A stretch of 48,152 nucleotides of DNA, from positions 1-48,152 of IMG/VR virus record IMGVR_UViG_3300010362_000028, one strand, 5' to 3'. The stretch comes from a virus. Its lineage: Duplodnaviria; Caudoviricetes. The translations under genes were made by a program, and so were the position numbers. The number at the start of each line of letters is the position of its first letter. The stretch's first letter is position 1. Of this stretch, positions 4,765 to 46,155 are shown one piece after another. Below the pieces are notes generated by a model. It was given only the letters and a program-made list of their open reading frames with translations, did no database searches and was not told the origin of the DNA.

Positions 4765-5239
4765 CTTCCGCGAGCTCGACGCGCTGTTCGAGTTCACGGC
4801 GATAGCGAAAAACCCGCGGGTAGATACACCGCCGGATTTCTGGTTCATTCTATCGCTACGGGATCCGACACGGAAGCTCGACCAGGTCCACTGGCAAGTT
4901 CTGGATCGGACGTATCGGACGCTGGGGGTCGCGACTCGATTCGCGCGATACCAAGATCATTTGGAACTGGATCCAATCCCGAGCCAAGACCAGTCGATGA
5001 CGATGCGGTATCGTCGCCGGCTGCCGAAGCTCATTGCGGGGATGCCAATTCCGCTGGAGCGCGAGTGGCACGAGATGCTGGTGACTCTGACGGTGGCTAA
5101 GGGGCTTGAGGCCCTACAGCGCTTTGAGGAAGCTGCGCCGTATAAGGGCTCGGTAGATGCGAACCTTGCTAGCCGAATGGACAACCCACTGTTGGAAGAT
5201 GATGGATTCGAGACAACGATTGCGGTACGGTACCGTTGA
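4631..5239 (+). CDS. Head-tail adaptor (podovirus gatekeeper-type)
   Basis: GAGG RBS. TYDDIKAEVIKRLG N-terminal helix and LELDPIP...MRY pattern. Positioned before the nozzle gene. Confidence 0.7.
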   Translation: MNAQTYDDIKAEVIKRLGNRQDLSTRIDQWAMDAFTELTQAPKASFRELDALFEFTAIAKNPRVDTPPDFWFILSLRDPTRKLDQVHWQVLDRTYRTLGVATRFARYQDHLELDPIPSQDQSMTMRYRRRLPKLIAGMPIPLEREWHEMLVTLTVAKGLEALQRFEEAAPYKGSVDANLASRMDNPLLEDDGFETTIAVRYR

Positions 5240-5266
5240 TCGTTCACTAATTGAAGGGGCAAGAGA

Positions 5267-13622: not shown

Positions 13623-13647
13623 GTTGGCACTTTAATCCTTGAACGAA

Positions 13648-14787
13648 CTACTTGAGTTCCCCGACCCAGATATAGACGTTCGGGTGGTCCTCGGCCCGCT
13701 TGACGAGACCGCTCTCGACTAACGTTTCCATGATCAACTTGAACTGGTCCGCACGACACGGGTAGAGCTTTCGTAGGACCTCGCTGTGGCCGACTCGCTT
13801 GGCCCTGCTGATGAAGGTGGCGGCGCGACTCAGATAGTTCGTTTGCTGGTCGCCACCGATCTCCGCGAAGGCATGGGGCGCGTTGTTTTCCACGGCCTCG
13901 ACAGCGTGCAAGGCCCCGTCCAAGAACCCTTCGTCAATCTCCTTCGTGAGATTCGAGGCCGCGAGCACCATCGCCACCCGCAGTACGTGGTCGTGCTTGC
14001 GCCCCCACATTCCCTCAAGTCGCTTGTCCGAAGGCGGCTGGATGTTGTTGTACCAGTCGATGTACCACTCCCTAGCTGCGGGCGTGAGGGTGAACTCACC
14101 ATTGAGTTCCCCGATCTTGGACATGATCGCGAGGAGCTGGAGTCGAAGATCCTCGTCCTCCTGCGTCAGTTCGGGCAGCGCGTTGCGCCGGGGGGTGTCC
14201 GCCTGGTAGATGAACAGTACCCGCGAGGCGAATCCCTCGAGCAGGGCGCTGGGTGGGATGCCCTGCGCGACCCCATCTGGGGTAGTAGCGGCAATGATGC
14301 ACAGAAACAAATCTTTAAGGAGCACCTGGCCCTTGTTCTTAGTCTTGTACGACCACTCGCGCGGACAATCATACATGTCCGTCAAGATGTGAATGAGCGG
14401 CTCACCGTACTGTTGCTTGGTAAGAAACACGCTCAACTCCCCACTATGGACCAGGACATTAGGCGCGATCTCACAGCCTTCGTCCGGCTTGATCTCCTCG
14501 ATAAAACGTTCTGGCGTAATCTTCCCACCGATCACACGGGTCGTCGGGACAACCTTAAGTAACTCGACGCCGATGTTGATTGCCGTTGACTTCCTGCACC
14601 GGGCTGAGCCAGCCACGAGGATCGTGAACAAATTCGGGAATAGCCTGTAGTACCCTCTATTGATGAAGCACTTCCGGCCCAACGCCGCTGCAACCACCGT
14701 CATCCCAACCCACAAATGGAAGTCGTCTGGGGACTCTTGCTTGCTCGTGTACCGTAAGTACAGTCGCAAGAACGACTCCTCAAGCAT
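13648..14787 (-). CDS. DUF3987/YfjI-type P-loop ATPase (putative replicative helicase)
   Basis: ESP..FH.W, PNLFTILVAGSARCRKSTA (Walker A-like), ITPE, LTDMYD, IAATTP, GFASR, and a winged-helix-like C-terminus. Confidence 0.7.
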   Translation of the reverse strand: MLEESFLRLYLRYTSKQESPDDFHLWVGMTVVAAALGRKCFINRGYYRLFPNLFTILVAGSARCRKSTAINIGVELLKVVPTTRVIGGKITPERFIEEIKPDEGCEIAPNVLVHSGELSVFLTKQQYGEPLIHILTDMYDCPREWSYKTKNKGQVLLKDLFLCIIAATTPDGVAQGIPPSALLEGFASRVLFIYQADTPRRNALPELTQEDEDLRLQLLAIMSKIGELNGEFTLTPAAREWYIDWYNNIQPPSDKRLEGMWGRKHDHVLRVAMVLAASNLTKEIDEGFLDGALHAVEAVENNAPHAFAEIGGDQQTNYLSRAATFISRAKRVGHSEVLRKLYPCRADQFKLIMETLVESGLVKRAEDHPNVYIWVGELK

Positions 14788-17526: not shown

Positions 17527-18960
17527 TCACTCGGAAACAGTAGACTCATTGCTAGGAGCGCCATCACCTGCCGGCAGGTCAATTTCTGCCTGGCTCGCCA
17601 GATCACGCGCCACGCGATCCACCGCACTGCGATAAAAGTCCTGATGCTTCTCGATCCCGATGAACCGGCAGCCCAGCTGTGCAGCAGCAACCAAGGAACT
17701 TCCGCTTCCGGCGAAGGGGTCAAGTACGAGTTCACCCTTGACGGCGCTCGCTTCGATGAGGTGTCGCATGAGCGCGACGGGCTTCTCGACGCTGTGGATC
17801 TTCTTTGAGACGGTGTCATACTTAAGCACGTTGAACGGTTGGGGCTTGACCAGAACACGGCCGCGGTTCACCCAGAAGCACGGTTCGTAGGTATAGATCC
17901 AATTCCGTGTAGGATCCCCGATGCCCGTGGTCTGCTTAAGCCAGATGATGGGGGTCGCTTCGCACTCCCCGAAATGCCGCTTGAGCATTAGGTACACAGG
18001 TTCGTACCTAGTCATGTGGAAGAACACGTACGCATGTCCGTCAGGCTTCAACAGCCTAGCAGCGTGCATGAACGTTTCGTCTAGCATATCCATGACTGTC
18101 TTGGGGTCGTCATCGTACATGGCGCCCTGGTTCTCGGCAAACTTGCTGGAGCTGGTCGCTGTGCCTTCCCGATACAGCCCTATTCCGTACGGTGGGTCTG
18201 TGACGATGAGGTCGATGGAGTCGGCGGGGAGTCCGCGGAGGACATCTCGGGAATCGGCGTGATAGAAGATTCCGATACCTTTCCACACGGCTTTGCGGAT
18301 CGGTTGACGGACGAATATCGGAGCGTCGGTTTCTGTGGCTTCTTCCTCGGCATCGTCGTCATCTTCCGAGAACGCTCCATGGTCGATCTCCTGCTTGCGC
18401 TTCGCCAGCTCCGCACGAAGTGCGGTCTCCTTCATGCGCCTGAACCGCTTGAACGCGGAGGACTTTGTCTTTTCCTCCACGAGATCTGGGTATTCCTGGA
18501 GCGCCTTTGCTAACGCAAGATCCATGCTAATGGATCCGGTCGCACGATCAAGTTCCCTTGCCGCCTCCTCGATCCCGTACCCACCGTTCTCGCTTAGTGG
18601 GTTACCCTTCTCGCCGTACCGACTCTGCTTGGCCATGTACAGCCTGTAGAGCCCGACGACTTCCTCTTGCCACTCGAGATCCTTGCGCCGGATATTCTCC
18701 TCAAGCTCGAGTTCCTGTCGCACGATCGGATCCAGCGCCTCGCGGCGCAGGTACGGGATGTCGGGCCAGCCGAGATGCTTTGCTGCCAAGATGCGGCGGT
18801 GGCCCGCGATCAAATTGTTCTCCTCGTCGAGCACGATGGGCGTGAGCAATCCGAACCGTGCCAGTGACGCAGCGAGTCCCTCGATATCACCGAAGAACTT
18901 CCGCATGCGATGCTTCTCACCGATGTTGATGTCCGTGATGGCTATGCGTTCCTCAGGCAT
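17527..18960 (-). CDS. ParB-like domain fused to N6A/N4C DNA methyltransferase (beta order)
   Basis: LAASLARFGLLTPI...LIAGHRRILA...ENIRRKDL (ParB/Srx), then TDPPY, HSVEKP and VLDPFAGSGS. Confidence 0.88.
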   Translation of the reverse strand: MPEERIAITDINIGEKHRMRKFFGDIEGLAASLARFGLLTPIVLDEENNLIAGHRRILAAKHLGWPDIPYLRREALDPIVRQELELEENIRRKDLEWQEEVVGLYRLYMAKQSRYGEKGNPLSENGGYGIEEAARELDRATGSISMDLALAKALQEYPDLVEEKTKSSAFKRFRRMKETALRAELAKRKQEIDHGAFSEDDDDAEEEATETDAPIFVRQPIRKAVWKGIGIFYHADSRDVLRGLPADSIDLIVTDPPYGIGLYREGTATSSSKFAENQGAMYDDDPKTVMDMLDETFMHAARLLKPDGHAYVFFHMTRYEPVYLMLKRHFGECEATPIIWLKQTTGIGDPTRNWIYTYEPCFWVNRGRVLVKPQPFNVLKYDTVSKKIHSVEKPVALMRHLIEASAVKGELVLDPFAGSGSSLVAAAQLGCRFIGIEKHQDFYRSAVDRVARDLASQAEIDLPAGDGAPSNESTVSE

Positions 18961-19183
18961 TGTCGCGCTTCCTCTTGCTTTCCCAGGGCCGGGTCTCAAT
19001 GAGTTGGCCTAGGTGTTCTAGGGATCGGGTGAGCTGCGCGGGCGACGGGAACATATCCATCGCTTCTTCAATCCTATCCTCCTCGTCGTTCTCAACGATG
19101 GTTTTTAGGTGGTCAAGTGCGTCGGTCACTTCCACAAAAGTTGCTGCGATCTTCTCGATCTTCGAAAGGCATTTTTGGTTCAT
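18953..19183 (-). CDS. Hypothetical protein
   Basis: GAGGA RBS. Helical and acidic. Overlaps the MTase start. Confidence 0.55.
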   Translation of the reverse strand: MNQKCLSKIEKIAATFVEVTDALDHLKTIVENDEEDRIEEAMDMFPSPAQLTRSLEHLGQLIETRPWESKRKRDNA

Positions 19184-22152: not shown

Positions 22153-22443
22153 TCAGAGCCCTAGGGACTCGAGGTACTGAGCCCGCTTGCGCTCGCGAGG
22201 CTCGGTCTCGGACTCCTTCTGGAGCTTGGAGCGCTCGACGCCCTGGAGGTACACGACATGGGCATTGATGAAGCGACGGAACACGGCCTTCTCACCGAGC
22301 AGCGCCACGGCGTCCCCAATAGACGCGGGCAGTTCTGCCTGGAAGTCCTGCTCGTTCTTGTCATCACCCTTGCCGGTGCTGACCTTGAGAGTGACGGCCT
22401 TGACCTTTGCTTCGTGCTTTGCGGGAACAACAATATCCGCCAT
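22153..22443 (-). CDS. Hypothetical protein (first gene of the replication operon)
   Basis: Strong AGGAGAGG RBS before ATG 22443. GC-rich codon usage like other phage genes. Confidence 0.6.
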   Translation of the reverse strand: MADIVVPAKHEAKVKAVTLKVSTGKGDDKNEQDFQAELPASIGDAVALLGEKAVFRRFINAHVVYLQGVERSKLQKESETEPRERKRAQYLESLGL

Positions 22444-22662
22444 GTGTCCTCTCCTTCTTCTAGCGTGGATCAATTGATGGGTTTTGCGATCCACGACTAC
22501 TAAATTGTTGAGGTTGTTATTGAACGGATCTTCGTGTACTAGTTCGTAATTCTTGAGCCTCCTTCCCAGATATATCTCGATAAGTTTTCTGGCTGCTATG
22601 TGGCCGTAGGCTGTTGCGGTGCCGCCTGTTATCGTGTCCTTAAATTTTCCTTTTAAATTCAA
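22444..22662 (-). pseudogene. Degenerate HNH homing endonuclease remnant, in frame with the downstream gene
   Basis: AT-rich segment encoding LGRRL..YELVHEDPFNNNLNNL....H...H, which lacks part of the usual VHH.D motif. Confidence 0.55.
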
Positions 22663-22690: not shown

Positions 22691-22707
22691 TGCAAACGGA
22701 GTGCCAA
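22691..22707 (-). promoter_or_regulatory. sigma54 (-24/-12) promoter of the replication operon
   Basis: The minus strand reads TTGGCAC-TCCGT-TTGCA with exact GG-N10-GC spacing. Intergenic. Confidence 0.75.
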
Positions 22708-22722
22708 TGTCAATTTTACAAT

Positions 22723-23130
22723 TCACCTCAAGGTCCTGGTATTGACAAGGCTGCATTGTGCACGTAACAATCCCTTGAGCTTCTTTAGTAAGGGAAAGAG
22801 GACCGCATTTCCGGTTATGTTTGGGTCAACAGATATTTCGGGAGTTAGCTGAAATTCCGACCAGAGAAGGTGGCCCATGGGAATACGCTTCGTAACCACG
22901 CGGGCGCCCGTCGGTACTTTGATGTTGAGCTCAATCTGTTCTATGATCTCGCGCCTGGTTGCATCTAGCTCGAGCTGGACCTCGGGTCCAACTAGAAAGC
23001 AGATGAGCTGCGCGATATTGAACATCTCGACCTGGGCGGCATGGAAATGACGTATTACTTCTGGCGTCCTACCGTTTCTAGGTAGGTGGCCATGCTTTCC
23101 GCGTAGTTCGCGGAAGCGTGCGATTGCCAT
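22723..23130 (-). CDS. Hypothetical protein (start uncertain)
   Basis: Open frame filling the gap between the structured region and the sigma54 promoter. Confidence 0.45.
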   Translation of the reverse strand: MAIARFRELRGKHGHLPRNGRTPEVIRHFHAAQVEMFNIAQLICFLVGPEVQLELDATRREIIEQIELNIKVPTGARVVTKRIPMGHLLWSEFQLTPEISVDPNITGNAVLFPLLKKLKGLLRAQCSLVNTRTLR

Positions 23131-23159
23131 GTCAAGTATCATGCTGTCTTGAGAACCCC

Positions 23160-23420
23160 CCTTCTGCATCAGAACGCAGCTTGGCGCTGTGGGTCGTTGA
23201 CCCAACAAGAAAGTTTGGGGCACGCCTCGACGTCGGGCGCGGTCAGACGCCCGAGTCGGTTGGCTGTCCCGTGGCTACTTCAATCTGTGAAGGAGAATGA
23301 AAGAGGCTAACATGAAACTACCTCATTACGTTGAGGTCCGCCGTTCTCATTTTCAACCTTGTTTATATGCACCGGATGAGACGCCGGTTTAGGGCAACTG
23401 CCCAGGGCGCGGTTCGCCCT
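23160..23420 (-). ncRNA. Candidate structured non-coding RNA / leader
   Basis: At least six short perfect hairpins in 260 nt with no convincing gene. No family recognised. Confidence 0.35.
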
Positions 23421-23941
23421 TAGATCTTCTGGTACAATTTCTTGCTGTCCAGTGCCGCGGCACCGCTCGGTGACAAGCGACCGCGGGGATCGATCAGTCC
23501 CCGATACACGCAGACTGCACGCGCAACTGCCATCGTGGACCGATCGAAGGCATCTTCCTGCGATAGGAGCACTGCGATTTCCTCGGGCGAGAGTCGCCAG
23601 CCATTGGAGTAGGACCAGGAGTGTGCTCGTGCCCTTGCGGGGCAGAGGAACACCAGCAGGTCACGACGCCGGCCCCGCATCACGGGAAGGGCCGCGAGTG
23701 CTGTGTTAACGTCGAGCTTGATACGCTTGCCCTCTCTCAGGGCGTGGTTGCGGTAGAAGGTGTAAGGCTCCTGGGAGATGTCGAGCAGTCGGAAGCGGAG
23801 CCTCGAGACTCCCGACAGGTTGCTAGCGTTGATGGTCACGTCGGGCGTCGGGACCAGCCAGACGAATCGGCCTTGGTAGCCGATCCGCCGGCTGATCTCG
23901 CGCATCACGTCTTGCCTCCTATAGACGGAAGCTGAGTCCAT
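23420..23941 (-). CDS. Hypothetical protein
   Basis: Arg-rich ORF in the minus-strand early cluster. Confidence 0.55.
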   Translation of the reverse strand: MDSASVYRRQDVMREISRRIGYQGRFVWLVPTPDVTINASNLSGVSRLRFRLLDISQEPYTFYRNHALREGKRIKLDVNTALAALPVMRGRRRDLLVFLCPARARAHSWSYSNGWRLSPEEIAVLLSQEDAFDRSTMAVARAVCVYRGLIDPRGRLSPSGAAALDSKKLYQKI

Positions 23942-23942
23942 G

Positions 23943-24293
23943 TTAGACGAGCCTGCCTCCGGACTTGGTGATGACCAGGCTTGCGAAGTGAACCAACAAC
24001 TCAAGGCATCCTGTTGCACTCTCGTGTGGCATCTCGTGACATGCTACCATGTGTTCCACGAACTCGGCCGTGGACTTGGCTGTCGGTCCGATAATACCCT
24101 TGTCTTTGCGGATCGTGGCCCACCAGCAGCCGATGAAGTGATACAACAGGTTACCCATCGAATCCGACTTCTCTCTGTCATCGACGAAGTTAAGCTCGTC
24201 GATCACCTGGGCTGCCGCCTCGATGCACCACTCGTGGAACGGCTCGACATGTAACCAGTTGTCATCGAACGGAATGTGGCAGAAGTCCTGCAT
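23943..24293 (-). CDS. Hypothetical protein
   Basis: AGGAGG RBS. Confidence 0.55.
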   Translation of the reverse strand: MQDFCHIPFDDNWLHVEPFHEWCIEAAAQVIDELNFVDDREKSDSMGNLLYHFIGCWWATIRKDKGIIGPTAKSTAEFVEHMVACHEMPHESATGCLELLVHFASLVITKSGGRLV

Positions 24294-24302
24294 CACACCT
24301 CC

Positions 24303-24539
24303 TTACTCGCAGATTGTCTGGAGGTCAGCCATGATTGCGTTGTAGATAGTCTCACGATCCTCTGCGCTTAGTTGCGTGATCTCTGCCTCCTCCTGGGGGT
24401 CGAAGACCTTGTACCTGAACTCGATCGTATCGTGTTCGTCTTCCAGGTCCCCGTCACGCACGTAGTGGTCTAGGAGCAGGACCACGACCTGTCGCGCGCC
24501 GAGCATTATCTCGAGTTCGAAGGACACGTAAAATCCCAT
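24303..24539 (-). CDS. Hypothetical acidic protein
   Basis: Abuts both neighbours. Acidic. Confidence 0.55.
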   Translation of the reverse strand: MGFYVSFELEIMLGARQVVVLLLDHYVRDGDLEDEHDTIEFRYKVFDPQEEAEITQLSAEDRETIYNAIMADLQTICE

Positions 24540-24725
24540 CTACGAGCGCGAGTGGGTCTTCGTGTAGCTGACCTGGCCCTTGTCAATCCGAAGGGTCCAC
24601 CCACACTTCTCGTTGTAACAGACCCACGCTTTGTACTTGACGGAGCCCCCGTGATCCCCGCCGTAGTCTGATAGCGGGAGCAAGATCCCGGACTTGCAGT
24701 TAGGACAATTGATAAACGTCTCCAT
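24540..24725 (-). CDS. Zn-ribbon protein
   Basis: CPNC...WVCYNEKCG. Strong GGAGGAGAGG RBS. Confidence 0.65.
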   Translation of the reverse strand: METFINCPNCKSGILLPLSDYGGDHGGSVKYKAWVCYNEKCGWTLRIDKGQVSYTKTHSRS

Positions 24726-24740
24726 CTTCCTCTCCTCCTC

Positions 24741-25094
24741 CTACTTCAGTAGATCGTCAAGATCTTGCTTGAACTTGAGGGTGATCTCGCCCACCGCCCC
24801 ACCCCGCCCCCTCCTCCCCCCACCACCTTGGCTGGTGAGGGGGAGACGTGGGGTCCCCGTCTCCGATCGAGGGGCCGCTGCCTGTTCGAACGCCAGTTCC
24901 CGCGGCCCATGGTACGGGATGTACTCGCCGTCGTGCCGAATGAGCGGCGCGACGAGGTTGATCGCTTGCACCAGCAGCTGGTCGATCTCAGCGAGCTGGC
25001 CCCGCAGAGACTCTTGCTCTACGGGGCGCGCTCGGAGATCCGCTAGTGCTGTGTTAAGGAAGTGACTTACTGCTACTAGCGGAGCGTGTGGCAT
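24741..25094 (-). CDS. Hypothetical protein
   Basis: ORF in the early cluster. Contains repeat copy B. Confidence 0.5.
   Translation of the reverse strand: MPHAPLVAVSHFLNTALADLRARPVEQESLRGQLAEIDQLLVQAINLVAPLIRHDGEYIPYHGPRELAFEQAAAPRSETGTPRLPLTSQGGGGRRGRGGAVGEITLKFKQDLDDLLK
24790..24856 (-). repeat. Dispersed C-rich/CCTCACCAGCC/G-tract element, copy B
   Basis: Minus strand CCCCACGTCTCCCCCTCACCAGCCAAGG followed by GGGGGG/GGGGG/GGGG/GGGG tracts. Confidence 0.65.
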
Positions 25095-25097
25095 GGT

Positions 25098-25313
25098 TCA
25101 CCACTTGGGCCTGGGGCCCTGGGTCTTGCGGAGCATGTTCAGTAGCTCCCGATCGGTCTTGCTGAAGGGCTCGTCCCCGCGGCGCTCCTCAAGGGCTAGC
25201 TCGTAGCCCATGTCGTACTCGCGCTGCAGGATGGGGTCGCTCCACTTGTAGCGTTTGAGGCCCTCGAGCCCGTGGTGGTATCCTAGCTTCCGATGTTCGT
25301 CGTATAGCCCCAT
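25098..25313 (-). CDS. Hypothetical protein
   Basis: GGAGG RBS. GY..G...Y..GY pattern. Confidence 0.55.
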   Translation of the reverse strand: MGLYDEHRKLGYHHGLEGLKRYKWSDPILQREYDMGYELALEERRGDEPFSKTDRELLNMLRKTQGPRPKW

Positions 25314-25322
25314 CTCACCTCC

Positions 25323-25454
25323 TCACGGCAACGTGCCAGTGATGGCCCAGATCATGAGCGTGATGAACGCTGCCCAGGCCACGAACTCAGTCACGAACTC
25401 GAAGACCTGGCCGTGGCGTTCGTGCTGCCAGAACCACTTGTACCTGGGCGTCAT
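25323..25454 (-). CDS. Small membrane protein
   Basis: ATGA-coupled. C-terminal hydrophobic helix FVAWAAFITLMIWAI. Confidence 0.45.
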   Translation of the reverse strand: MTPRYKWFWQHERHGQVFEFVTEFVAWAAFITLMIWAITGTLP

Positions 25455-25882
25455 TCCATCTCCTCGATGGTCCACCCACGCTTCTCGAACCTCTCGCGGA
25501 TGGGCGCCCAGTCCGCGCCGATGAAATCGGGCCTGAAGCACGACTTGTCGCTTGTGCCCGCAGCCACGATCACATGGTCGCTGTTCACGTGGACCTGCAT
25601 CGTTTGCCCGTTAGGTGCCGTAGTCACGACGTAGGTGGTCCATCCACTGTTGTCGTTCATGTTATACATCTCCTCCCAACACGTGGGGCATGTGCCAGTG
25701 ATGAACAACTCCCGGAGGTCCGGGGAGAGTTCGGGCATTGCATCCTGGATCATGTGGCCAGCCATCCAGCTGTCGAAGCGGTCCTGGTGAATGGGAACGT
25801 CCACCTGGACAGGGCACCAGCGGCAGTTGATTTGCGCGTACACATGGCCTTCCTTGGTAACGAGGTTGATGTCTGTGATCAT
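25451..25882 (-). CDS. Hypothetical protein with CxxC pairs
   Basis: CRWC and IQDAMPELS...RELFITGTCPTCW. Confidence 0.6.
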   Translation of the reverse strand: MITDINLVTKEGHVYAQINCRWCPVQVDVPIHQDRFDSWMAGHMIQDAMPELSPDLRELFITGTCPTCWEEMYNMNDNSGWTTYVVTTAPNGQTMQVHVNSDHVIVAAGTSDKSCFRPDFIGADWAPIRERFEKRGWTIEEME

Positions 25883-26280
25883 GGGCGGCTCAGCTTACGG
25901 CCGGCACCCGTGCCCGTGCTCTTGAGGCGACCTGCCTTGATCAGTTCCTTCGCTACGCTCTGCACTGCGGTGTTGTGAATCTTGAGCTGTCGCGCGACCG
26001 CGGCGCCAGTAGTGGTCTTGCCCTTGTTAGTGGCAGCCATGAGCGCGTCGCGGATCTTCTGCCAGTCGTGCTTGTAGCCCTTGCCTGGGGACTTCGAGTT
26101 GGCTACCGCGCGCTGCTTGTTGTGAGATTTGAGGATACGGGCCAGCTCGCGGCCGTGCTTGGCGCAGAGGTCCACGTTAGGCACGCTGCTTGTCTCGTTG
26201 CCGTTTGACGCTGCCAGACTTACGACGGCGTGTTTGTGCTTTGGGCACCAATCGCAGACGAGCTCTGTTATCTGAGCCAT
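25879..26280 (-). CDS. Putative DNA-binding protein (Lsr2-like/Zn N-terminus, winged HTH C-terminus)
   Basis: MAQ..LVCDWC...VDLC..H..EL, and a C-terminal AAVARQLKI...AVQ.V..EL..AGRL...G.G. Confidence 0.55.
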   Translation of the reverse strand: MAQITELVCDWCPKHKHAVVSLAASNGNETSSVPNVDLCAKHGRELARILKSHNKQRAVANSKSPGKGYKHDWQKIRDALMAATNKGKTTTGAAVARQLKIHNTAVQSVAKELIKAGRLKSTGTGAGRKLSRP

Positions 26281-26557
26281 GGGGTTGTTCCACCTTTCTG
26301 ATGTCTGAATCTAGGATGGCGACTCGCGCCGCTGCTGGGTTGTGATTATCCAAGAACTCTCGGTATTCCTTCGAGTGCTTGTACGCAGGGGTCTTGATGA
26401 TCCTGCCCCGCGCGTCCCAGATCGGGAACTTCTCGCTGTTGCACTGGCTGCATACCTTGTGGATCTTGAACGTCCCATCATTGAGCTTGATGATCAGGAC
26501 GGTCCTGAAGGCATGCCGGTAACCCGCTGTGCATTCCATCAGTAGCTCGTACTTCAC
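26177..26557 (-). CDS. Hypothetical protein
   Basis: GTGA-coupled. C..H and CSQC residues. Confidence 0.55.
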   Translation of the reverse strand: MKYELLMECTAGYRHAFRTVLIIKLNDGTFKIHKVCSQCNSEKFPIWDARGRIIKTPAYKHSKEYREFLDNHNPAAARVAILDSDIRKVEQPHGSDNRARLRLVPKAQTRRRKSGSVKRQRDKQRA

Positions 26558-26715
26558 GCCGCAGCCCTCCTCGCCTCAGCCGCGCTTTCCTCGCGGACGA
26601 TCCGTGCGATGGCGCTGAGTGCCTCAACGCCGGTGATCTCCCTCCGATTGTGGGCCCGGAGGACGCCCTGGATTCTCGAGAGCGTTCGCTTGTTGGTAGG
26701 TTTGGTTTCCTTCAT
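26554..26715 (-). CDS. Hypothetical protein
   Basis: AAGGAG RBS just downstream of a triple hairpin. Confidence 0.55.
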   Translation of the reverse strand: MKETKPTNKRTLSRIQGVLRAHNRREITGVEALSAIARIVREESAAEARRAAA

Positions 26716-26737
26716 CGCGTCTCCTTTTCTGGGTTCG

Positions 26738-26806
26738 CTGGTCGCTGTGACCAGTGGGGTGCCAGGTTGACACCTTACTTGGCGCTTCGAACTCCGAAGC
26801 GCCAAG
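26738..26806 (-). other. Triple-hairpin intergenic cassette
   Basis: CTGGTC/GACCAG, GGTG/CACC core with flanking wobble pairs, and CTTGGCGCTTCG/CGAAGCGCCAAG. Confidence 0.6.
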
Positions 26807-26813
26807 CGGGCTA

Positions 26814-26993
26814 TCAACTTGGGATGTTTGCCTCTAGTGTCTCCTCCTTAGTGATGATCTCTCGGAACATGTCCTCTAACTTCTGGGGGACGTTCGCGTT
26901 TTGGTTGGGGGCTGGGTTCGTAGTCTCCTCGAGCCACCGGCAGAGGTTGGACGCTTCGTCCTCGCTCATATGGATGTTGACGGTCTTGGCCAT
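26814..26993 (-). CDS. Hypothetical protein
   Basis: ORF in the early cluster. Confidence 0.45.
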   Translation of the reverse strand: MAKTVNIHMSEDEASNLCRWLEETTNPAPNQNANVPQKLEDMFREIITKEETLEANIPS

Positions 26994-27004
26994 TGGGTAG
27001 TGGC

Positions 27005-27346
27005 TCACGTGCATGACTTCTCCGCTAGCCCAGTGACGAGTCCGTGCCAGTACGCGACTTCCGTGGCGTATGGTACGTGGCCCTTGCGGGCATACATGAG
27101 TGTGAGAAAGACTGGCACGATCCACGGCTCCTTGCCGAGTGGCACGATCGGCTTGAGATCCTCGTAGATCGCTTCAGTCAGCCCGACGTGGGCGTCGGCC
27201 TCGAGCATGATGTCGAGCGCGTCCGCCCAGTGGGCTCCGCGGTAGTGCGGGTTTGTTTCGACGAAATGCTCGAGTGCCTTCTTGCTGTGATCTGACAGCA
27301 GTTCCTCGATGTCCAGGAGCATCCTGGTCTGTTGATCCGTCTCCAT
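27005..27346 (-). CDS. Hypothetical protein
   Basis: AAGGAGG RBS. Confidence 0.55.
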   Translation of the reverse strand: METDQQTRMLLDIEELLSDHSKKALEHFVETNPHYRGAHWADALDIMLEADAHVGLTEAIYEDLKPIVPLGKEPWIVPVFLTLMYARKGHVPYATEVAYWHGLVTGLAEKSCT

Positions 27347-27421
27347 TCGCCCTCCTTTGCATCTCGGGTAGATAGCCCTGCAATAAGGCCAGCAGGTAGT
27401 TGCGTCGCTGCTCGAGCCAGG

Positions 27422-27715
27422 TCACTTCGGGAATCCCTGCGCCTGGTCGATCAGTTCACGGACGGCGCTGCGGAGCCCGTGTAGCTGTTGGGTCAAGAAC
27501 TCGCGCTCCGCGTCGGTCTTGGCTAGCGTCCGCAGATTCACGAACACCGCGCCAAACCGCTTGTACATGTCGTTGAGGATCATGTTGAGGCTCCCGTGCT
27601 TCTTGACTGGATCATTTGGGATGGGTCGCACGATTGCCTCCTGGTGTCCGTTCCTAGGTGTGATTCCGACTGCTCCTTCCAGCAGCCCCCTGCGCTCCGA
27701 TGGTGGTGTTTTCAT
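27422..27715 (-). CDS. Hypothetical protein
   Basis: GGAG RBS and ATGA coupling. Confidence 0.55.
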   Translation of the reverse strand: MKTPPSERRGLLEGAVGITPRNGHQEAIVRPIPNDPVKKHGSLNMILNDMYKRFGAVFVNLRTLAKTDAEREFLTQQLHGLRSAVRELIDQAQGFPK

Positions 27716-27951
27716 TCGTCGTACTCCCTGAAGTTGTGAACCAGCCGATAGTTCACGCCGATCAGGGGATCGACGACGCAGACGTGGCCATTGACGCACC
27801 AGGTGACAGCGGTGGGGCGTGGGTCACCCGAGAAGACGGGCAGCTGGAGCTTGATGCAGCGCTCGTTGCACTCGGGGCACCGGTCGATGGAGTGGATGGG
27901 ATCGTCGGTCCGAAGGGCTTCGGCTCGTGGGTCGTCGTATTCGCTGGTCAT
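27712..27951 (-). CDS. Hypothetical Zn-ribbon protein
   Basis: CPEC...CVNGH. ATGA coupling. Confidence 0.55.
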   Translation of the reverse strand: MTSEYDDPRAEALRTDDPIHSIDRCPECNERCIKLQLPVFSGDPRPTAVTWCVNGHVCVVDPLIGVNYRLVHNFREYDE

Positions 27952-28223
27952 TCGCCCGGCTCCACGCGGTCGACCTCGATCTCGCGCTCGTTCATGTTGC
28001 TCTCGATGTCCTGGTTGTCCACGTCCCAGACGATGTTGTACTTCTCTGGGTACGGGGCCTTGTCCTGGCGGTACGCCTTCATGGCTGCCTCATCGTTCTC
28101 GACGAGGCCCGCGTACACGTCCATCGCGCGGTCCCAGGCCTGGTCCTCGTTCTCCGCGGCGACCTTGATGTGACAGGTCGCCGTGAGCTTGACGGGCACC
28201 TTCAGTGTGACGTTGTAGATCAT
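27948..28223 (-). CDS. Hypothetical acidic protein
   Basis: AGGAG RBS. V.AENEDQA motif common in small phage proteins. Confidence 0.55.
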   Translation of the reverse strand: MIYNVTLKVPVKLTATCHIKVAAENEDQAWDRAMDVYAGLVENDEAAMKAYRQDKAPYPEKYNIVWDVDNQDIESNMNEREIEVDRVEPGE

Positions 28224-28225
28224 GG

Positions 28226-28414
28226 TTAGATCTCCTGTACTGAGAGCTTGATGGCCTTGCCGTCGCCGATGGCAAGTGGTTGCATGGCGGAGACAGCCTC
28301 CCTGATGTCGTCGCGGAACTGCTGGGTGAGTTCCGCGAACTTCTCGTCGGGGCACTCCATCCAGAACTCGTCGGTGACAAGCACTGTGATCTTCATCTGT
28401 AGGATCGTGCGCAT
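28226..28414 (-). CDS. Hypothetical protein
   Basis: AGGAGG RBS. Confidence 0.5.
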   Translation of the reverse strand: MRTILQMKITVLVTDEFWMECPDEKFAELTQQFRDDIREAVSAMQPLAIGDGKAIKLSVQEI

Positions 28415-28708
28415 TTAGTCCTCCTTGTTGGTTCGCTCGATCGCTTCGAGGATCTGGAAGGTCTGGATCGTGCGGTGGAGTCCGCTGACGATAACATCGG
28501 CGTACTCGGGGGTATTGACCGTGTCTTTGATCACGTTGGTAACGACCTCGGGTAGGGCCCTGCCGTTCTCGGGGAAGATCTCGATGCTCAAGTCCGTGAT
28601 GTCTACGGGAGTCACGTGCTTGAGAGGGGCGCGTTCCCCATTCGACATGATCTTGAAGACCCGCACGGTGATACCGTGCTCCTTGAGACCCTTCGGATTG
28701 ATTACCAC
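28415..28708 (-). CDS. Hypothetical protein
   Basis: AAGGAG RBS before GTG 28708. Confidence 0.5.
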   Translation of the reverse strand: MVINPKGLKEHGITVRVFKIMSNGERAPLKHVTPVDITDLSIEIFPENGRALPEVVTNVIKDTVNTPEYADVIVSGLHRTIQTFQILEAIERTNKED

Positions 28709-28733
28709 TTTCGTGCTCCTTTCATTGGTTGGT

Positions 28734-28793
28734 GGGATGCGTAGCATCCCGGTGCGGGATTGCACCGTGAGGGGCTTGGTCTCCCAAGCCCCT
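28734..28793 (-). other. Triple-hairpin intergenic cassette
   Basis: GGGATGC/GCATCCC, CGGTGC/GCACCG and AGGGGCTTGG/CCAAGCCCCT. Confidence 0.65.
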
Positions 28794-28803
28794 GGTGCTG
28801 CAA

Positions 28804-29148
28804 TCACTGGTTGTCGTGGTGACAGACCAACCGGCAGTGTTCGCAGAGATTCCAGGTGCCCATGTCCCGGAGCTTGGTGGGTTGGGTGGGAATGTGAGCA
28901 CCGTAGCCGTGGCCTTCGCCTTCGTCGTCGGTATGTGAGATGTGCTCGCACTCACACCACGCTGTGAGAAGGGCCGCGGCCTGGACGTGGCGTGCACATT
29001 CGGGGCAGCTACGCTGGTCTAACTCGTAGCGCCAATCCACGACCTCGTTGCCGATGGTATTGACCGACCAGGCTTTGCCGTCTGCGTAGAGGATGGGTCC
29101 GGCGGAGCCACAGTGAGGCTTGGTGTTCGGGTGGATGGTGAGGGTCAT
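28804..29148 (-). CDS. Hypothetical Cys/His-rich protein
   Basis: AAGGA RBS. CPEC, CECEH and CEHC. Confidence 0.55.
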   Translation of the reverse strand: MTLTIHPNTKPHCGSAGPILYADGKAWSVNTIGNEVVDWRYELDQRSCPECARHVQAAALLTAWCECEHISHTDDEGEGHGYGAHIPTQPTKLRDMGTWNLCEHCRLVCHHDNQ

Positions 29149-29152
29149 CGTG

Positions 29153-29539
29153 CTAGTCCTTTCTGCGAGCGAGTCGCTCGGCGCCTGGGTACTCATACTG
29201 CTTGAGGTGCTTCTTGATCTTGAAGGGGAGATCCACGAGGATCTCGTCGGGCAGCGGACCGAGTTGCTCGAATTCGTGGAGGGCCTTGACGTAGGCGTAG
29301 TACGCATCGTTCAGGACGAGGGAGGCGTGGGCCACGCGCTCGCGTAGCTCGTAGGTATCGGCCTGGGGGACTGCCTTGGGCGAGCGGTACTTGTACACGT
29401 CTTCGGGCTCGGGCTTGTAGTAGCGTCGTTGGGGTTCGTTGCGAGTCCGAGCGCCCGGGGGATTGCTCCCCCTGGCAGGGCGCGGTTTGTTTGTCTCGGC
29501 TGCCTTGAGAGGCTGCTTGAAGTTGAGAGTGAGGGTCAA
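29153..29539 (-). CDS. Hypothetical protein
   Basis: AAGGAGG RBS before TTG 29539. Confidence 0.55.
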   Translation of the reverse strand: MTLTLNFKQPLKAAETNKPRPARGSNPPGARTRNEPQRRYYKPEPEDVYKYRSPKAVPQADTYELRERVAHASLVLNDAYYAYVKALHEFEQLGPLPDEILVDLPFKIKKHLKQYEYPGAERLARRKD

Positions 29540-29567
29540 TGCCTTGTCCTCCTTGGGGGGGGCTGCC

Positions 29568-29897
29568 TCAGCCCACGATTTGGCGAAGGCGGTCGCAGAC
29601 GCGATTGATGGCGACCATCTGCTCATGGGTGCCGCCGAGGTCGGGGTGGTGCTTGCGGCTCGTGGTGCGGTAGCCAGCGTTGATGATCTCCAGCGCGAGC
29701 TGTCGATCGACGGCGGCGATGGCCTGCTGGGTGGCGTACCGAGCATTCTGGCGGGCGCGCCACGCTTCCTCACGTGCACGCTGCGCCTGCTCGTCGGCGC
29801 GGCGCTCCGCCTTGACACGCTTGCGCTCGGCGCGGCGCCGTTCCTGCTCTGCCTTGCGTTTGTTGACTCGGGCATCAGCGTTGAAGGTGAAATCCAT
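29568..29897 (-). CDS. J-domain (DnaJ-like) protein
   Basis: C-terminal GYRTTSRKHHPDLGGTHEQMVAIN with the HPD motif. AAGGA RBS. Confidence 0.7.
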   Translation of the reverse strand: MDFTFNADARVNKRKAEQERRRAERKRVKAERRADEQAQRAREEAWRARQNARYATQQAIAAVDRQLALEIINAGYRTTSRKHHPDLGGTHEQMVAINRVCDRLRQIVG

Positions 29898-29913
29898 GCA
29901 GTTTTCCTTTCTC

Positions 29914-29977
29914 GGGCTGCACAGCAGCCCCCTTCGGCGGCCTTGCCGCCTGGCTTGGATCCTTGGATCCCGCAGCC
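29914..29977 (-). other. Triple-hairpin 5' leader of the early operon
   Basis: GGGCTGC/GCAGCCC, GGCGGC/GCCGCC and GGATCC/GGATCC with flanking GGCT/AGCC. Confidence 0.55.
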
Positions 29978-30010
29978 GCTCTTGAGTTGCAAACCATCGA
30001 TTCCGAGGAC

Positions 30011-30039
30011 AGAGTACATGATCCGGCGAGATAAGTCAA
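30011..30039 (-). promoter_or_regulatory. sigma70-type early promoter
   Basis: Minus strand TTGACT-N17-TACTCT, upstream of the early gene cluster. Confidence 0.65.
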
Positions 30040-30044
30040 GCGCG

Positions 30045-30479
30045 TTAACTATCAACCTTGGTGCGCTTCGCGGCGCGGTCGAGGACATCTGACGCGGATT
30101 GTGGAGTGGGCATCTTGCGGGTCAGTTCAGCAATTTGAACTGATACGTTGGAATCTGTCTTGGCAGCGAGGGTGCGCTCGAGCTGGGGCATATACTGATG
30201 AACTAACATGTCTGCTATGCGGGGATCATGGGCACGCTTGCGATGCATTGTCTCAGCACACGAGGAGCAGAGATCGTAGCGCGTGTCCATCTCCTCCTGG
30301 AGGTATGGGACCTTGCAACGTGCACAGATAGGTACGTCGTACTTATCACGGAGGAACTGGAGTCGTTCTTGCCAGGCTAGGCGAATGAATGTGTTGGGTA
30401 GTTCGCGGGCGTCAATGCCCACGTGGTCGAGTGCAGCTAGGAGTCGGTCGAGATACGCGTAATTGATGCGACGTGACAT
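30045..30479 (-). CDS. Hypothetical Zn-finger protein downstream of a sigma54 promoter
   Basis: AAGGAG RBS. CARC...CSSC. Confidence 0.65.
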   Translation of the reverse strand: MSRRINYAYLDRLLAALDHVGIDARELPNTFIRLAWQERLQFLRDKYDVPICARCKVPYLQEEMDTRYDLCSSCAETMHRKRAHDPRIADMLVHQYMPQLERTLAAKTDSNVSVQIAELTRKMPTPQSASDVLDRAAKRTKVDS

Positions 30480-30524
30480 GTTGTCTCCTTTCAGTTAGCG
30501 GGGTACTGCCTAGTGGTATATGTA

Positions 30525-30540
30525 TGCAGAAGTTGTGCCA
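30525..30540 (-). promoter_or_regulatory. sigma54 (-24/-12) promoter
   Basis: Minus strand TGGCAC-AACTT-CTGCA, GG-N10-GC, about 45 nt upstream of ATG 30479. Confidence 0.7.
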
Positions 30541-30602
30541 CACTAATTGGGGCCTCGTGGGCGTGGTACCGCGGCGGGCCGTGGGCTCGTGGTTGGGGTT
30601 TG

Positions 30603-30827
30603 TGGTCGATTTGTTGGTGGTTCTGGTTCTAGTGTGCCCCTTGGGATGATATGGTGGGTTCCTATCATTAAGTATATTGTAACACTATATAATTATTTAT
30701 ACATATAGGGCCACTTCAAATTCCTCGTGATACCCTTTAATTTCCTTCCTCGTCGGAAATGACGACAGAACCTCACCATATTCCCCCAAGGGGCACACCA
30801 GAACCATAACCCACAACCAATCAACCA
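30603..30827. repeat. About 68-bp imperfect inverted repeat flanking an AT-rich core (candidate replication origin)
   Basis: Arms 30603-30669 and 30758-30827 share TGGTTCT.GTGTGCCCCTTGGG...ATATGGTG. The core 30666-30716 is very AT-rich. Confidence 0.75.
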
Positions 30828-31119
30828 ATGTCAGCCCAGTGGCTGGCTAACGTGGCTAGCACGTTGAACGTTCACATTTTGAAGGCCCAACAAACCTGGC
30901 CAGATGAGATGCCCGCGTTTGTATCTCTATGAGAGTGCCGCGTTTCAACCATTATAGGGGCGTGCGCCGCGGCTGCTGGCTAGCTTTCAGCGCCGCGAGG
31001 TAGAGCTCTGGTACTCGAGCAACCTGGCCAGGTGGCAGGCCAGGCAGCAGCCTGGTCGAACAGCCAGGTGTGCAGCTAGACTGACGTGCTCAGGCAGGTG
31101 CCATGGCACGACGCAAGCG

Positions 31120-31179
31120 AAAAAAAATCGCGTCGGGGGCAAAAAAAGACTTGACTCGCTCCGCCCCGTCGGGCAAGGT
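31120..31179 (+). promoter_or_regulatory. Possible sigma70 promoter with A-tract UP element
   Basis: Two A-tracts, then TTGACT (31151) N17 CAAGGT. The -10 match is weak. Confidence 0.4.
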
Positions 31180-31251
31180 GGTTCCAATCCGATCGATGGT
31201 CGATCGGAGGTTGCTTGATCCGGGCGAGGCCCGGGCCAAAGGAGATCAGAG

Positions 31252-31695
31252 ATGGCATTCACGTTCCGCAAGCCGGTCGCAGGCGAGGCCACCAAGCCCG
31301 CGACCAAGAAGGATCCGATGGCGTATATCTTCATCGGAAACGATCCGTACCGCACCAGCCCCGACCGGACCGCGCAGGACTGGCGTAAGCTTTTCCTGGT
31401 GTTGGCAAGCTTCGCTGAGAGCAACGGCAAGCCAGTCAGCAATAATGAGTTCGGGCTGTCGATGGTGTACGACGCGCTGGAGAAGCTGGAGGCGCAGGCC
31501 CGCAAGGAACTCGGCGCCGACTACGACACGGCCGTCGAGGCGCGGTGGACGGAGATTCTTGCCAAGGAAGCAGAGAAGAAGGACCGCAAGGCAGCAGCGG
31601 ACGCTGTTAACCCGGACCTGCAGCAGGATCTGGAAGCGTCAGTCGAGGCGGCCACCAAGCCGGCCACGAAGCCAGTTGCCAAGACCAAGAAGTAG
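31252..31695 (+). CDS. Hypothetical protein in its own transcription unit
   Basis: AAAGGAG RBS, strongly biased codons, TKPA repeats at both ends, and a downstream terminator. Confidence 0.75.
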   Translation: MAFTFRKPVAGEATKPATKKDPMAYIFIGNDPYRTSPDRTAQDWRKLFLVLASFAESNGKPVSNNEFGLSMVYDALEKLEAQARKELGADYDTAVEARWTEILAKEAEKKDRKAAADAVNPDLQQDLEASVEAATKPATKPVAKTKK

Positions 31696-31715
31696 CAAGG
31701 CAACTTGCTAGAGAC

Positions 31716-31749
31716 GGGGGGCCGGGGTAACCTGGCCCCCTTTCTTTTT
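31716..31749 (+). terminator. Rho-independent terminator
   Basis: GGGGGCCGGG/CCTGGCCCCC stem followed by TTTCTTTTT. Preceded by a TAGCAAG-GCAA-CTTGCTA hairpin. Confidence 0.85.
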
Positions 31750-31761
31750 GGCTCGCGCCGT

Positions 31762-31811
31762 ACGAGCGTTCGTTTGACACAGACAACCTGTATGCGAACG
31801 AGCGTTCGTTA
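31762..31811. promoter_or_regulatory. Duplicated near-palindromic operator/enhancer-like sites
   Basis: ACGAGCGTTCGTT occurs twice, 36 bp apart. Confidence 0.5.
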
Positions 31812-31940
31812 GTACCCCCCAACGTGATTTAAAATTGGAGGACCCGCTAGGGTACCCCACCCTCGCGCGCGCGTACTTTTTTCAGTACTTTGTAAACGAT
31901 ACAACTGCTATCCATTTCACAGCTTTTGGCCCGGTGGCCC

Positions 31941-31956
31941 TGGCACGCCGATTGCA
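31941..31956 (+). promoter_or_regulatory. sigma54 (-24/-12) promoter of the late/virion operon
   Basis: CTGGCACG-CCGA-TTGCA, a near-perfect match to the sigma54 consensus, upstream of the first late gene. Confidence 0.8.
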
Positions 31957-37021: not shown

Positions 37022-37109
37022 GTGGCAAGGCAAGGGCAAGCCAAGCAAGGCGCAGAAGGCGTTCATTGTGGCTGTGCGGGCCATGCCGCCCAAGAAGACG
37101 AAGAAGTGA
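37002..37109 (+). CDS. Small basic peptide
   Basis: MKKQATEWQGKGKPSKAQKAFIVAVRAMPPKKTKK. Its stop overlaps the GTG start of the MTase (GTGA). Confidence 0.45.
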   Translation: MKKQATEWQGKGKPSKAQKAFIVAVRAMPPKKTKK

Positions 37110-38492: not shown

Positions 38493-38524
38493 AGGCCGCT
38501 TGGCCGTTCAAGGTTTGAAGCGAT

Positions 38525-40063
38525 ATGCAAGCGAGTGACTTGAGCCAGGCGCGGTGGGCCGCCGAGAGTGGGGATACGGGGGAGCGGAGTGAGACCGTGC
38601 GCCAGAATTTGAGGTGGCAGGCCCAGCGGAACACGTACTTTATGGCCAAGGCGGTGGTGGGCTTCCATGACCTGACGGTGGGCTTGCATAGTGAGATGTG
38701 CGAGTGGATCCGGAGCGTGCCGACTAGGAAGCTCGGGCTGGTGCCGCGGGACCACTTGAAGACGAGTGTCTGGACAATTGCTGATACGGTGAGGTTGATT
38801 GCGGCGGATCCGAACATCCGGCTGTTGATCGCGAATGAGACGGCGACGAACGCGAGCCATTTCCTGCGGAGGATCCAGGCGGTGTTCGAGCGGAGCACGA
38901 TGTTTAGGTGGCTGTTCCCTGAATTGATACCGGACGTGGGCAAGACCAAGTGGAGCGAGAGCGAGATGCTGGTGCCACGGAAGAAGGACTTCCCTGAGTC
39001 CACGGTGGAGGTGATGGGGGTCGGTGGAGCTGTCGTTAGCCGGCACTACAATAGAATCAAGCTGGATGACTTGGTCGGGAAGGAAGCAAGCGAGTCCGTT
39101 GAGGTGATGAAGAAGACGATTGATTGGTACTTGTATTGCGAGTCCTTACTCGAGAAGCCCATCGACCCCATCGAAACGTACGGCACAAGGTGGACCCACA
39201 AGGATCTGTACGCTTGGATAATGGAGCACGAGCAAGACATAGATATCTTCCACCGGAAGGCCGTGAGCCCAGAGGGGACTACGCTGTGGCCCGAACGCTT
39301 TCCGTTGGTGGAGCTGGATCGGATCAGGCGGAAGATAGGTTCGTTCAAGTTCTCGTGCCAGTACCAGAACGAGCCCTTCGATCCGGAGCACATGACCTTC
39401 GATCCTGGGTGGCTAAGGTTCTACGAGCTGAGCGGTTGGTTTGTGGACGAGGAGGCCGGATGTGTGCAGTTGCAGTTCGTCGGGCTGCCGAAGCCGGTGC
39501 GCGTCGTTCCGTTCATATTGACGGATCCCGCGATTAGTGAAAAGAGCCACGCTGCACGAAGTGCGGTGGTGGTGGCGGGCCTCGATGAAGCGGAGCGAAT
39601 CCTGGTGCTGGAGGCCTTTGCGGAGCGGTGCCAGCCAGTGAAGATGATCGACAAGATCTTCGAGATGGCCGAACGGTGGGGGCCGATGGCGATAGTGATC
39701 GAGGGGGTGGCGTACCAACGGGCCTTGAAGGGCTTCATCGAGGCCGAGTGTATACGGAGGGGGAACTGGCTCAATGTGAGGGAGGTGCGGCCTGGTAGCA
39801 AGGAAGGGAAGGAGAGTCGCATCCGGGGATTGCAGCCGTATGCCCAGCGGGGACGCCTCTGGATTCGTCGGTCAACTTGCGAAAAGCTGGTCGACGAGTT
39901 TGAGGCGTTTCCGCTGGGCGATACTGTGGACATCTTGGATGCTCTGAGCTATGGGCCCCAGGTCTGGGTGGGCCCTGACACGGAGTCAACTGGTCGTCCA
40001 ATTCGTGACGAAGACGAGCGGCCACCGAGCTACGAGGGGGTGAGCTATGTCACCGGGTACTGA
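38525..40063 (+). CDS. terL: Terminase large subunit
   Basis: PRDHLKT Walker A variant, IKLDDL Walker B, GTRW, FSCQYQNEP, and nuclease motifs TDPA, IEGVAYQ, KESRI, DILDAL. Confidence 0.92.
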   Translation: MQASDLSQARWAAESGDTGERSETVRQNLRWQAQRNTYFMAKAVVGFHDLTVGLHSEMCEWIRSVPTRKLGLVPRDHLKTSVWTIADTVRLIAADPNIRLLIANETATNASHFLRRIQAVFERSTMFRWLFPELIPDVGKTKWSESEMLVPRKKDFPESTVEVMGVGGAVVSRHYNRIKLDDLVGKEASESVEVMKKTIDWYLYCESLLEKPIDPIETYGTRWTHKDLYAWIMEHEQDIDIFHRKAVSPEGTTLWPERFPLVELDRIRRKIGSFKFSCQYQNEPFDPEHMTFDPGWLRFYELSGWFVDEEAGCVQLQFVGLPKPVRVVPFILTDPAISEKSHAARSAVVVAGLDEAERILVLEAFAERCQPVKMIDKIFEMAERWGPMAIVIEGVAYQRALKGFIEAECIRRGNWLNVREVRPGSKEGKESRIRGLQPYAQRGRLWIRRSTCEKLVDEFEAFPLGDTVDILDALSYGPQVWVGPDTESTGRPIRDEDERPPSYEGVSYVTGY

Positions 40064-46126: not shown

Positions 46127-46155
46127 CTTGCCCGTTCAACCATTGAACGGGTAGG
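46127..46155 (+). other. Stem-loop after MCP, abutting the next RBS
   Basis: CTTGCCCGTTCAA-CCA-TTGAACGGGTAGG with no U-tract. Confidence 0.6.

Follow-up and report, generated by a model that had tools for sequence, protein, structure and literature searches.

The 48,152-bp virus record IMGVR_UViG_3300010362_000028 (Caudoviricetes; analyzed at its full length and hereafter called the window) carries its replication genes and its lysis and virion genes behind promoter motifs of the sigma-54 type and encodes no protein with a sigma-54 activator domain. The motifs hold their places across related phages, one small early gene (22723-23142) is kept alongside them, and half-sites of a palindromic element stand at recurring places near the middle and late motifs. 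This activator-less sigma-54 programme is real and clade-wide, while the mechanism that opens the promoters has live rivals. The reading that we favor, tentatively and at less than even probability, is a joint one: a host AAA+ activator, recruited or switched on via the product of 22723-23142, would open the conserved sites, and a phage DNA-binding protein would order middle before late expression through the half-sites.

Sigma-54 motifs in the window and in related phages

The window is a whole, podovirus-type virus record from an uncultured phage of soil type, with a completeness rating of 100%, and it is organized in two arms, one running leftward from about 30.5 kb and the other rightward from about 32 kb. 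The first-pass annotation, made from the sequence alone, claimed three TGGCAC-N5-YTGCA sites, and all of them are present, intergenic, and facing the head of a unit:

22691..22706, minus strand: sigma-54 -24/-12 site of the replication operon, predicted start at about 22680
30525..30540, minus strand: sigma-54 -24/-12 site of the zinc-finger gene beside an origin-like tract, predicted start at about 30514
31941..31956, plus strand: sigma-54 -24/-12 site of the lysis/packaging/virion arm, predicted start at about 31967

The site sequences are TGGCACGCCGATTGCA (plus strand, from 31941), TGGCACAACTTCTGCA (minus strand, from 30540), and TGGCACTCCGTTTGCA (minus strand, from 22706; a 16-mer covering 22691-22706), all ending in TGCAT. 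Only 4 of the 39 TGGCAC hexamers in the window are followed by YTGC at N5, three of them being the reported sites. The fourth match, at 47090 on the minus strand (ending CTGCC), had gone unmentioned; as a promoter, it was rejected, being antisense within a collagen-repeat open reading frame (ORF), scoring 13.3, and having no counterpart among the top matches of the relatives. The chance expectation of TGGCAC-N5-YTGC in the window is 0.27 under an order-2 and 0.42 under an order-5 Markov model, and at least three matches arose in 1 of 150 simulations under each model. Wrong spacers between N2 and N9 gave zero or one match each. In the position weight matrix scan that had been proposed as a check, a matrix trained without the window placed its three sites first to third (23.1, 21.2, and 19.0), the next match scoring 13.3.

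Ten related records were compared, with terminases 71-81% identical in the nine that hold this gene, the remaining record (G010) having been found via the exonuclease. The strict pattern is present in all 10, with 26 sites against 0 for the reversed control, and the sites in the relatives occupy the same three places while the flanks diverge. Loss of the motifs in close relatives, named at the outset as an argument against their being promoters, was not seen. A leave-one-genome-out ranking recovers the sites, including GG-N10-GC variants in G005 and G008, and such a variant also lies 5' of the zinc-finger gene of a phage found in a metagenome-assembled genome (MAG) described below. Most sites lie about 45-95 nt 5' of a start codon with a ribosome-binding site (located by a crude regular expression), and orientation and start-codon spacing fit promoters in all three classes. 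Because the 50 collected sites were chosen by the pattern, their base table is conditioned on it and cannot independently support the core bases.

The arrangement extends to more distant relatives, namely G012 (terminase 58% identical) and G056 and G057 (50%), in which the layout is kept. A homolog of 22723-23142 occurs in 23 metagenome loci, counting duplicates and the window's own record. Downstream DNA is available for 22 of them, and in 21 of these a sigma-54 site follows 13-87 bp after the homolog. Five more viral loci have a site within about 100 bp of the homolog, and in L089 the distance is 329 bp, after one inserted gene. Beyond this group are sister phages with terminases at 35-38% identity, three of which (35-36%) gave 2, 2, and 0 loose matches versus 5, 0, and 1 in the control, none being TGGCAY. 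As a separate observation, the subclade of G004, G005, G008, and G014 carries one more sigma-54 site, which stands back-to-back with the promoter (sigma-70) of the gene for a ribbon-helix-helix (RHH)-like protein (L040:4872, L043:3953, L048:12174, and L091:10961), and G014 has eight loose sigma-54 matches in total.

The comparison supports the view that these are conserved sites with the behavior of sigma-54 promoters, placed at the heads of middle and late units, and the three motifs in the window are very probably active. Judged by sequence and position, they appear to be ordinary sigma-54 promoters: like the canonical glnAp2/NtrC and pspA/PspF promoters, they combine TGGCAC-N5-TTGCW and GG-N10-GC with a consensus -12 element at operon heads. 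Unlike those systems, they occur in a lytic-type phage without a cognate activator gene or an enhancer shared at -250 to -30. It is improbable that the sites serve to park sigma-54 or to repress, or are targets of another factor of the same specificity, while the operons use unrecognized promoters. Repression of overlapping promoters by sigma-54 is known (PMC4551910), the replication site of the window, G002, and G003 is overlapped by a TTGACA, and some relatives carry additional sigma-54 sites without an adjoining gene. However, this TTGACA has no good -10 element and is missing in most relatives, neither a sigma-70 site nor any other alternative promoter was found at the three unit heads of the window, and the orientation and spacing described above are promoter-like in all three classes.

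Activator supply and candidate early proteins

Sigma-54 polymerase is thought to require an ATP-driven AAA+ activator, and the earlier claim that none is encoded in the window is borne out: PF00158 has no match at E ≤ 10, and no GAFTGA-like motif occurs in the six frames. At the same threshold, the profile matched none of 10 records, 8 of which are at least 90% complete. The sole conserved Walker A match of the motif scan is Sak4, which sits behind a sigma-54 site. Bypass transcription is rare in vivo and has been linked to a non-consensus -12 element, and even deletion of Region I still gives little bypass in vivo (PMC4551910). Since bypass is tied to a non-consensus -12 element while the phage sites keep the canonical TGCW, an activator would, by the established mechanism, be required here.

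The host is a possible source. An Acidobacteriota MAG (G011) includes a 48.6-kb relative as an entire contig. The MAG has a single rpoN, with Region I, and gives 26 strong PF00158 matches, one of them a 327-aa AAA+-HTH protein without a sensor domain. Across genomes drawn from Acidobacteriota, rpoN was present in 41 of 41 (40 of 40 without the unpublished G039). A sensor-less AAA+-HTH activator gene in this putative host, at L200:3451-4434 (contig C104 of G011), is divergent from a receiver-type activator. We consider it fairly likely that a host AAA+ activator supplies the ATP step. No motif common to all three promoter classes was found at -250 to -30, so a host activator would have to work without an ordinary enhancer. 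FlgR, CtcC, and FleT are AAA+ activators that are enhancer independent and are encoded in the same genome as their promoters; the phage promoters would likewise be activated without a bound enhancer, as the missing shared motif would require, but the phage has no AAA+ activator of its own. The suggestion that the promoters are gated by nitrogen or envelope stress found no footing, as nothing points to it and the three promoter classes share no enhancer-like motif.

Host activation could operate without any phage adaptor, with a sensor-less or infection-induced host activator opening the promoters and 22723-23142 doing an unrelated essential job. The 26 activators in the putative host, including the one without a sensor domain, fit this explanation, as does the early arm in three distant relatives, which seems to start with sigma-54 sites so that first transcription may precede any phage protein; moreover, the link of 22723-23142 to transcription is without positive support. 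Nevertheless, we regard it as unlikely, given that no shared enhancer was found and that almost every core locus has 22723-23142 directly beside the replication promoter.

The early ORFs of the window and 11 relatives were clustered, and the family profiles were then searched over the relatives' DNA. The early promoters and genes that bear on the question are as follows:

30011..30039, minus strand: sigma-70-type early promoter behind the zinc-finger gene, with counterparts in G001, G004, G005, G007, G008, and the MAG phage
about 31151..31179, plus strand: sigma-70-type promoter with an upstream A-tract, for 31252-31695, with counterparts in G004, G005, and G008
22723..23142, minus strand: 139-aa helical protein without known family, candidate adaptor or activator, the most widely kept non-replication early gene
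30045..30479, minus strand: fast-evolving, Cys-containing, zinc-finger-like protein, behind a sigma-54 site and beside the origin-like tract
31252..31695, plus strand: probable ribbon-helix-helix DNA-binding protein (from pattern only), monocistronic, with a terminator at 31716-31748
23420..24019, minus strand: protein with a weak C-terminal winged-helix match
29568..29897, minus strand: J-domain (HPD) protein, first gene behind the sigma-70 promoter
30600..30810, no strand assigned: AT-rich tract flanked by inverted repeats, origin-like as judged from sequence

The promoter at 30011-30039 had been predicted and is present (TTGACT-17-TACTCT), with counterparts in relatives; the one near 31151 was missed in the first pass. 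Three early ORFs had also been put forward as possible new sigma-54 activators. Of these, 22723-23142 is retained throughout and is the best candidate for a protein that may act on sigma-54, while the families of 30045-30479 and 31252-31695, present across the core clade, were undetected in G012, G056, and G057, the look-alikes in G012 resting on position and pattern. All sigma-54-bearing records that cover the early region contain the 22723-23142 family, with E values of 4e-14 in G056 and 2e-12 in G057, and no other early family outside replication was found across the entire clade. Other candidates for a universal activator were rejected: 23420-24019 is absent from the complete G001, the J-domain protein was not found in the complete G004, G005, and G014, and Sak4, primase, and terminase all lie behind sigma-54 sites.

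None of the 37 database homologs of 22723-23142 has a Pfam domain, and 12 positions are invariant among 31 homologs. The structural model has four helices and no sheet, with a predicted local distance difference test score (pLDDT) of 84 and a predicted template modeling score (pTM) of 0.80; it shows no alpha/beta AAA+ fold, and the protein has no Walker A motif. Fold searches with the model gave a best Z of 5.1 and no Foldseek match at E ≤ 0.001; 4 of 50 fold matches were sigma-70-family chains from polymerase/sigma complexes (Z 4.2-5.1, root mean square deviation of about 7), a likeness too weak for use. Atlas searches with 22723-23142 and 30045-30479 returned only matches under 0.9, and PDB and Pfam profile searches with four candidate families returned nothing significant.

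Two roles can be considered for this protein: (i) it recruits the host activator, to which we assign about half of the probability given above to host supply of the ATP step, or (ii) a phage protein, most likely 22723-23142, unlocks sigma-54 without ATP hydrolysis, by displacing Region I or stabilizing the opened -12 fork, and is a new activator class. The second would release a lytic phage from host signals, and it would suit the sole clade-wide non-replication early family, with its invariant positions and a confident model lacking both the AAA+ sheet and a clear structural match. We nonetheless judge it distinctly unlikely, since Region I deletion yields little bypass in vivo and the consensus -12 element kept by the phage sites restrains bypass (PMC4551910), and since 22723-23142 lies behind sigma-54 sites in distant relatives. 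Still more remote is a chaperone route, in which host DnaK, guided by the phage J-domain protein, would take over from an AAA+ activator and remodel the closed sigma-54 complex. The HPD J-domain gene is the first to be sigma-70 driven in the window and has homologs in G001, G002, G003, G006, G009, G056, and G057, but the three complete genomes without it retain all sigma-54 sites, which makes this route very improbable. As an aside, G002 and G003 have two J-domain-like genes each.

Palindromes and the proposed order of middle and late units

A 29-bp palindrome, S-ttggcg-CTTCA-N5-TGAAG-cgccaa-S, that was missed in the first-pass annotation is present in six copies in the window and is listed here together with two motifs upstream of the late promoter:

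5235..5263 (pos. 5242): palindrome copy 1
13623..13651 (pos. 13630): palindrome copy 2, where the two arms converge
23271..23299 (pos. 23278): palindrome copy 3, before 22723-23142 and 570 bp upstream of the replication site
30863..30891 (pos. 30870): palindrome copy 4, 330 bp upstream of the zinc-finger site
38499..38527 (pos. 38506): palindrome copy 5, at the large terminase start
46127..46155 (pos. 46134): palindrome copy 6, just past the major capsid gene
31915..31919, plus strand: TTTCA half-site, ending 21 nt upstream of the late -24 element
31840..31858, plus strand: GGACCCGC(T)AGGGTACCCC motif, about 100 bp upstream of the late site, in the window and eight relatives

Each of the 8 core genomes holds 6-9 copies at orthologous places, with an N6 spacer in the subclade of G004, G005, G008, and G014. 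Shuffling the window gave no palindrome in 19 of 20 cases and two in the remaining one. The six copies lie 7,260-9,648 bp apart (coefficient of variation 0.10; p 4e-5 against random circular placement, a post hoc test). An RNA hairpin was rejected as an explanation, with outer positions pairing in 191 of 427 cases versus 175 ± 9 for shuffled arms (p 0.057); because the outer arms do not covary, the palindrome would be a protein-binding DNA site. A likeness to IHF, Fis, or parS sites is conceivable. A role as a host enhancer found no support: of 61 genomes with kinship to the putative host, one has the palindrome next to a sigma-54 site, and none of the nine host palindrome matches examined lies beside canonical sigma-54 sites. 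Both observations also count against opening of the promoters by the host alone.

Half of the palindrome recurs next to the promoters themselves. In all 11 core-clade genomes, the late -24 element is preceded by a YTTCA half-site whose end is 14-26 nt away; this half-site is absent in the distant L089. At the replication promoter, 23 of 26 loci carry a TGAA half-site about 25-50 nt past the -12 element, the strict form being missed by the window, G005, and L089. A half-site downstream of the middle start together with one upstream of the late promoter is the arrangement needed by a switch that represses middle and assists late transcription, and this placement suggests a middle/late switch. 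We consider it plausible, at a probability somewhat short of even, that the palindrome binder acts at about +20 to repress the replication promoter and at about -45 to assist the late one; the protein of 31252-31695, driven by sigma-70, is a candidate for the natural binder.

Under the joint reading, host sigma-70 polymerase would first transcribe 31252-31695 and the early arm ending in 22723-23142, for which the promoter motifs are observed and the activity is predicted. Closed sigma-54 holoenzyme would then be held at the three sites, until a host AAA+ activator, for which 22723-23142 is the likely recruiter or switch, opened the promoters without a normal enhancer. Finally, the palindrome binder would put the replication genes ahead of the virion genes.

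Several observations weigh against this account. The one locus among the 22 without a neighboring site, L075, is the most divergent and has none in the 1.4 kb downstream of its 22723 homolog; the late site of G056 is degenerate; and palindromes number zero in G012, while in the window four of the six copies are far from any sigma-54 site. The host link to Acidobacteriota is weak and comes from a single metagenomic bin, and the promoter classes lack the common upstream motif of an ordinary enhancer. That the 22723-23142 family was found in none of five sister phages (35-38% terminase) is in favor of the account, but this search had no positive control, divergence could explain its result, and the co-occurrence of the family with sigma-54 promoters is a single evolutionary event. 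In G012, G056, and G057, its homolog lies downstream of sigma-54 sites with no facing sigma-70 promoter detected, which speaks against a first-trigger role, although the sigma-70 scan is insensitive, because G002, G003, and G009 were also missed. The ribbon-helix-helix assignment of 31252-31695 rests on an alignment pattern and two helices in a monomer model, and Pfam and Foldseek lend no support.

Other motifs were noted near the promoters. ACCC-N3-GGGT is present in 9 of 13 late regions, and GGACCCGC-AGGGTACCC is confined to the late promoter class. At 31820-31880 lies a conserved block, ACCCCCC...GGACCCGC(T)AGGGTACCCC...GCGC...T-run, which takes a palindromic form in the distant G056. The block is probably a genome end or packaging signal, and the motif within it may be a terminal-repeat or packaging signal or else a late-specific upstream element. 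G012, which is without the palindrome, repeats GGGTCA-N3-TGAC/GACC near its sigma-54 sites (L089:4295-4410 and 8078-8092), perhaps as its own operator.

Comparison with known phages and remaining features

A sigma-54-like phage promoter has a precedent in Pseudomonas phage YuA, where promoter P015 was assigned to a mapped start (10.1101/2023.10.13.562163). In YuA, however, one of 21 starts is sigma-54-like and nine have a phage-specific motif (10.1101/2023.10.13.562163), whereas in the present clade every main middle or late unit has a sigma-54 site at its head. The first-pass description of an undescribed system therefore has to be qualified as to the promoter type, but for a whole middle and late programme on sigma-54 without an activator, no description was found in the literature searched, largely abstracts. 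A further point of comparison is Htm (Gp204) of phage AV110, a GAFTGA-less AAA+ protein hypothesized to act on sigma-54 polymerase (10.64898/2026.10.06.757011). Htm is said to reprogramme host genes, in contrast to 22723-23142, which is small and helical, has no ATPase fold, and has phage promoters as its putative targets. The more far-reaching proposal, that the whole replication and virion programme runs on host sigma-54 via the non-AAA+ 22723-23142 as the first natural adaptor or ATP-free activator, with evenly spaced palindromic operators as the middle-to-late switch, appears doubtful.

A lytic-type phage with essential genes under sigma-54 and no activator either hands the decision to replicate and lyse to a host signaling protein or carries an unknown means of unlocking sigma-54. 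If a host activator is responsible, a soil phage could time lysis by host physiology. If instead the phage carries an unlocking factor, this would bear on natural sigma-54 activation without an enhancer-binding protein and could be put to use in synthetic circuits as a compact switch. In addition, the clade may be one of few phage groups linked to Acidobacteriota.

The closest terminase among GenBank phage records is 41% identical to that of the window. The leftward arm carries small early genes, then a PD-(D/E)XK exonuclease, Sak4, SSB, a ParB-N/methylase fusion, a family A polymerase, and a primase. The rightward arm carries endolysin, terminase, SU10-type portal, capsid, and virion genes and runs through the record start to 13.4 kb. 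No match to integrase, repressor, or RNA polymerase families was found among the 76 window ORFs scanned. The AT-rich tract at 30600-30810, with genome-specific inverted repeats, lies beside the fast-evolving zinc-finger gene, an arrangement also seen at L050:3630-3800; together they look like an origin with a co-evolving binder, and 30045-30479 is possibly an origin-binding protein.

Some genes stand out by their conservation. The ParB-N/N6-N4 methylase fusion at 17527-18999 is unusually conserved (72-87% in core relatives and 45% in G056 and G057), and the protein of 25879-26280 is kept in G056 and G057. The N-terminal part of this protein contains Cys and resembles Lsr2 dimerization domains, and its C-terminal part has a weak winged-helix match. 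The C5 DNA methylase at 37022-38071 is in none of the 11 relatives compared and would have been inserted recently; it lies between the large terminase region and the gene that probably encodes the small terminase. An HNH-like fragment at 22443-22662, also in G005, lies between the replication sigma-54 site and its first conserved gene and gives a longer leader. Finally, two GNAT acetyltransferase genes stand side by side in the virion module (6759-7758) and are 55-75% conserved among relatives.

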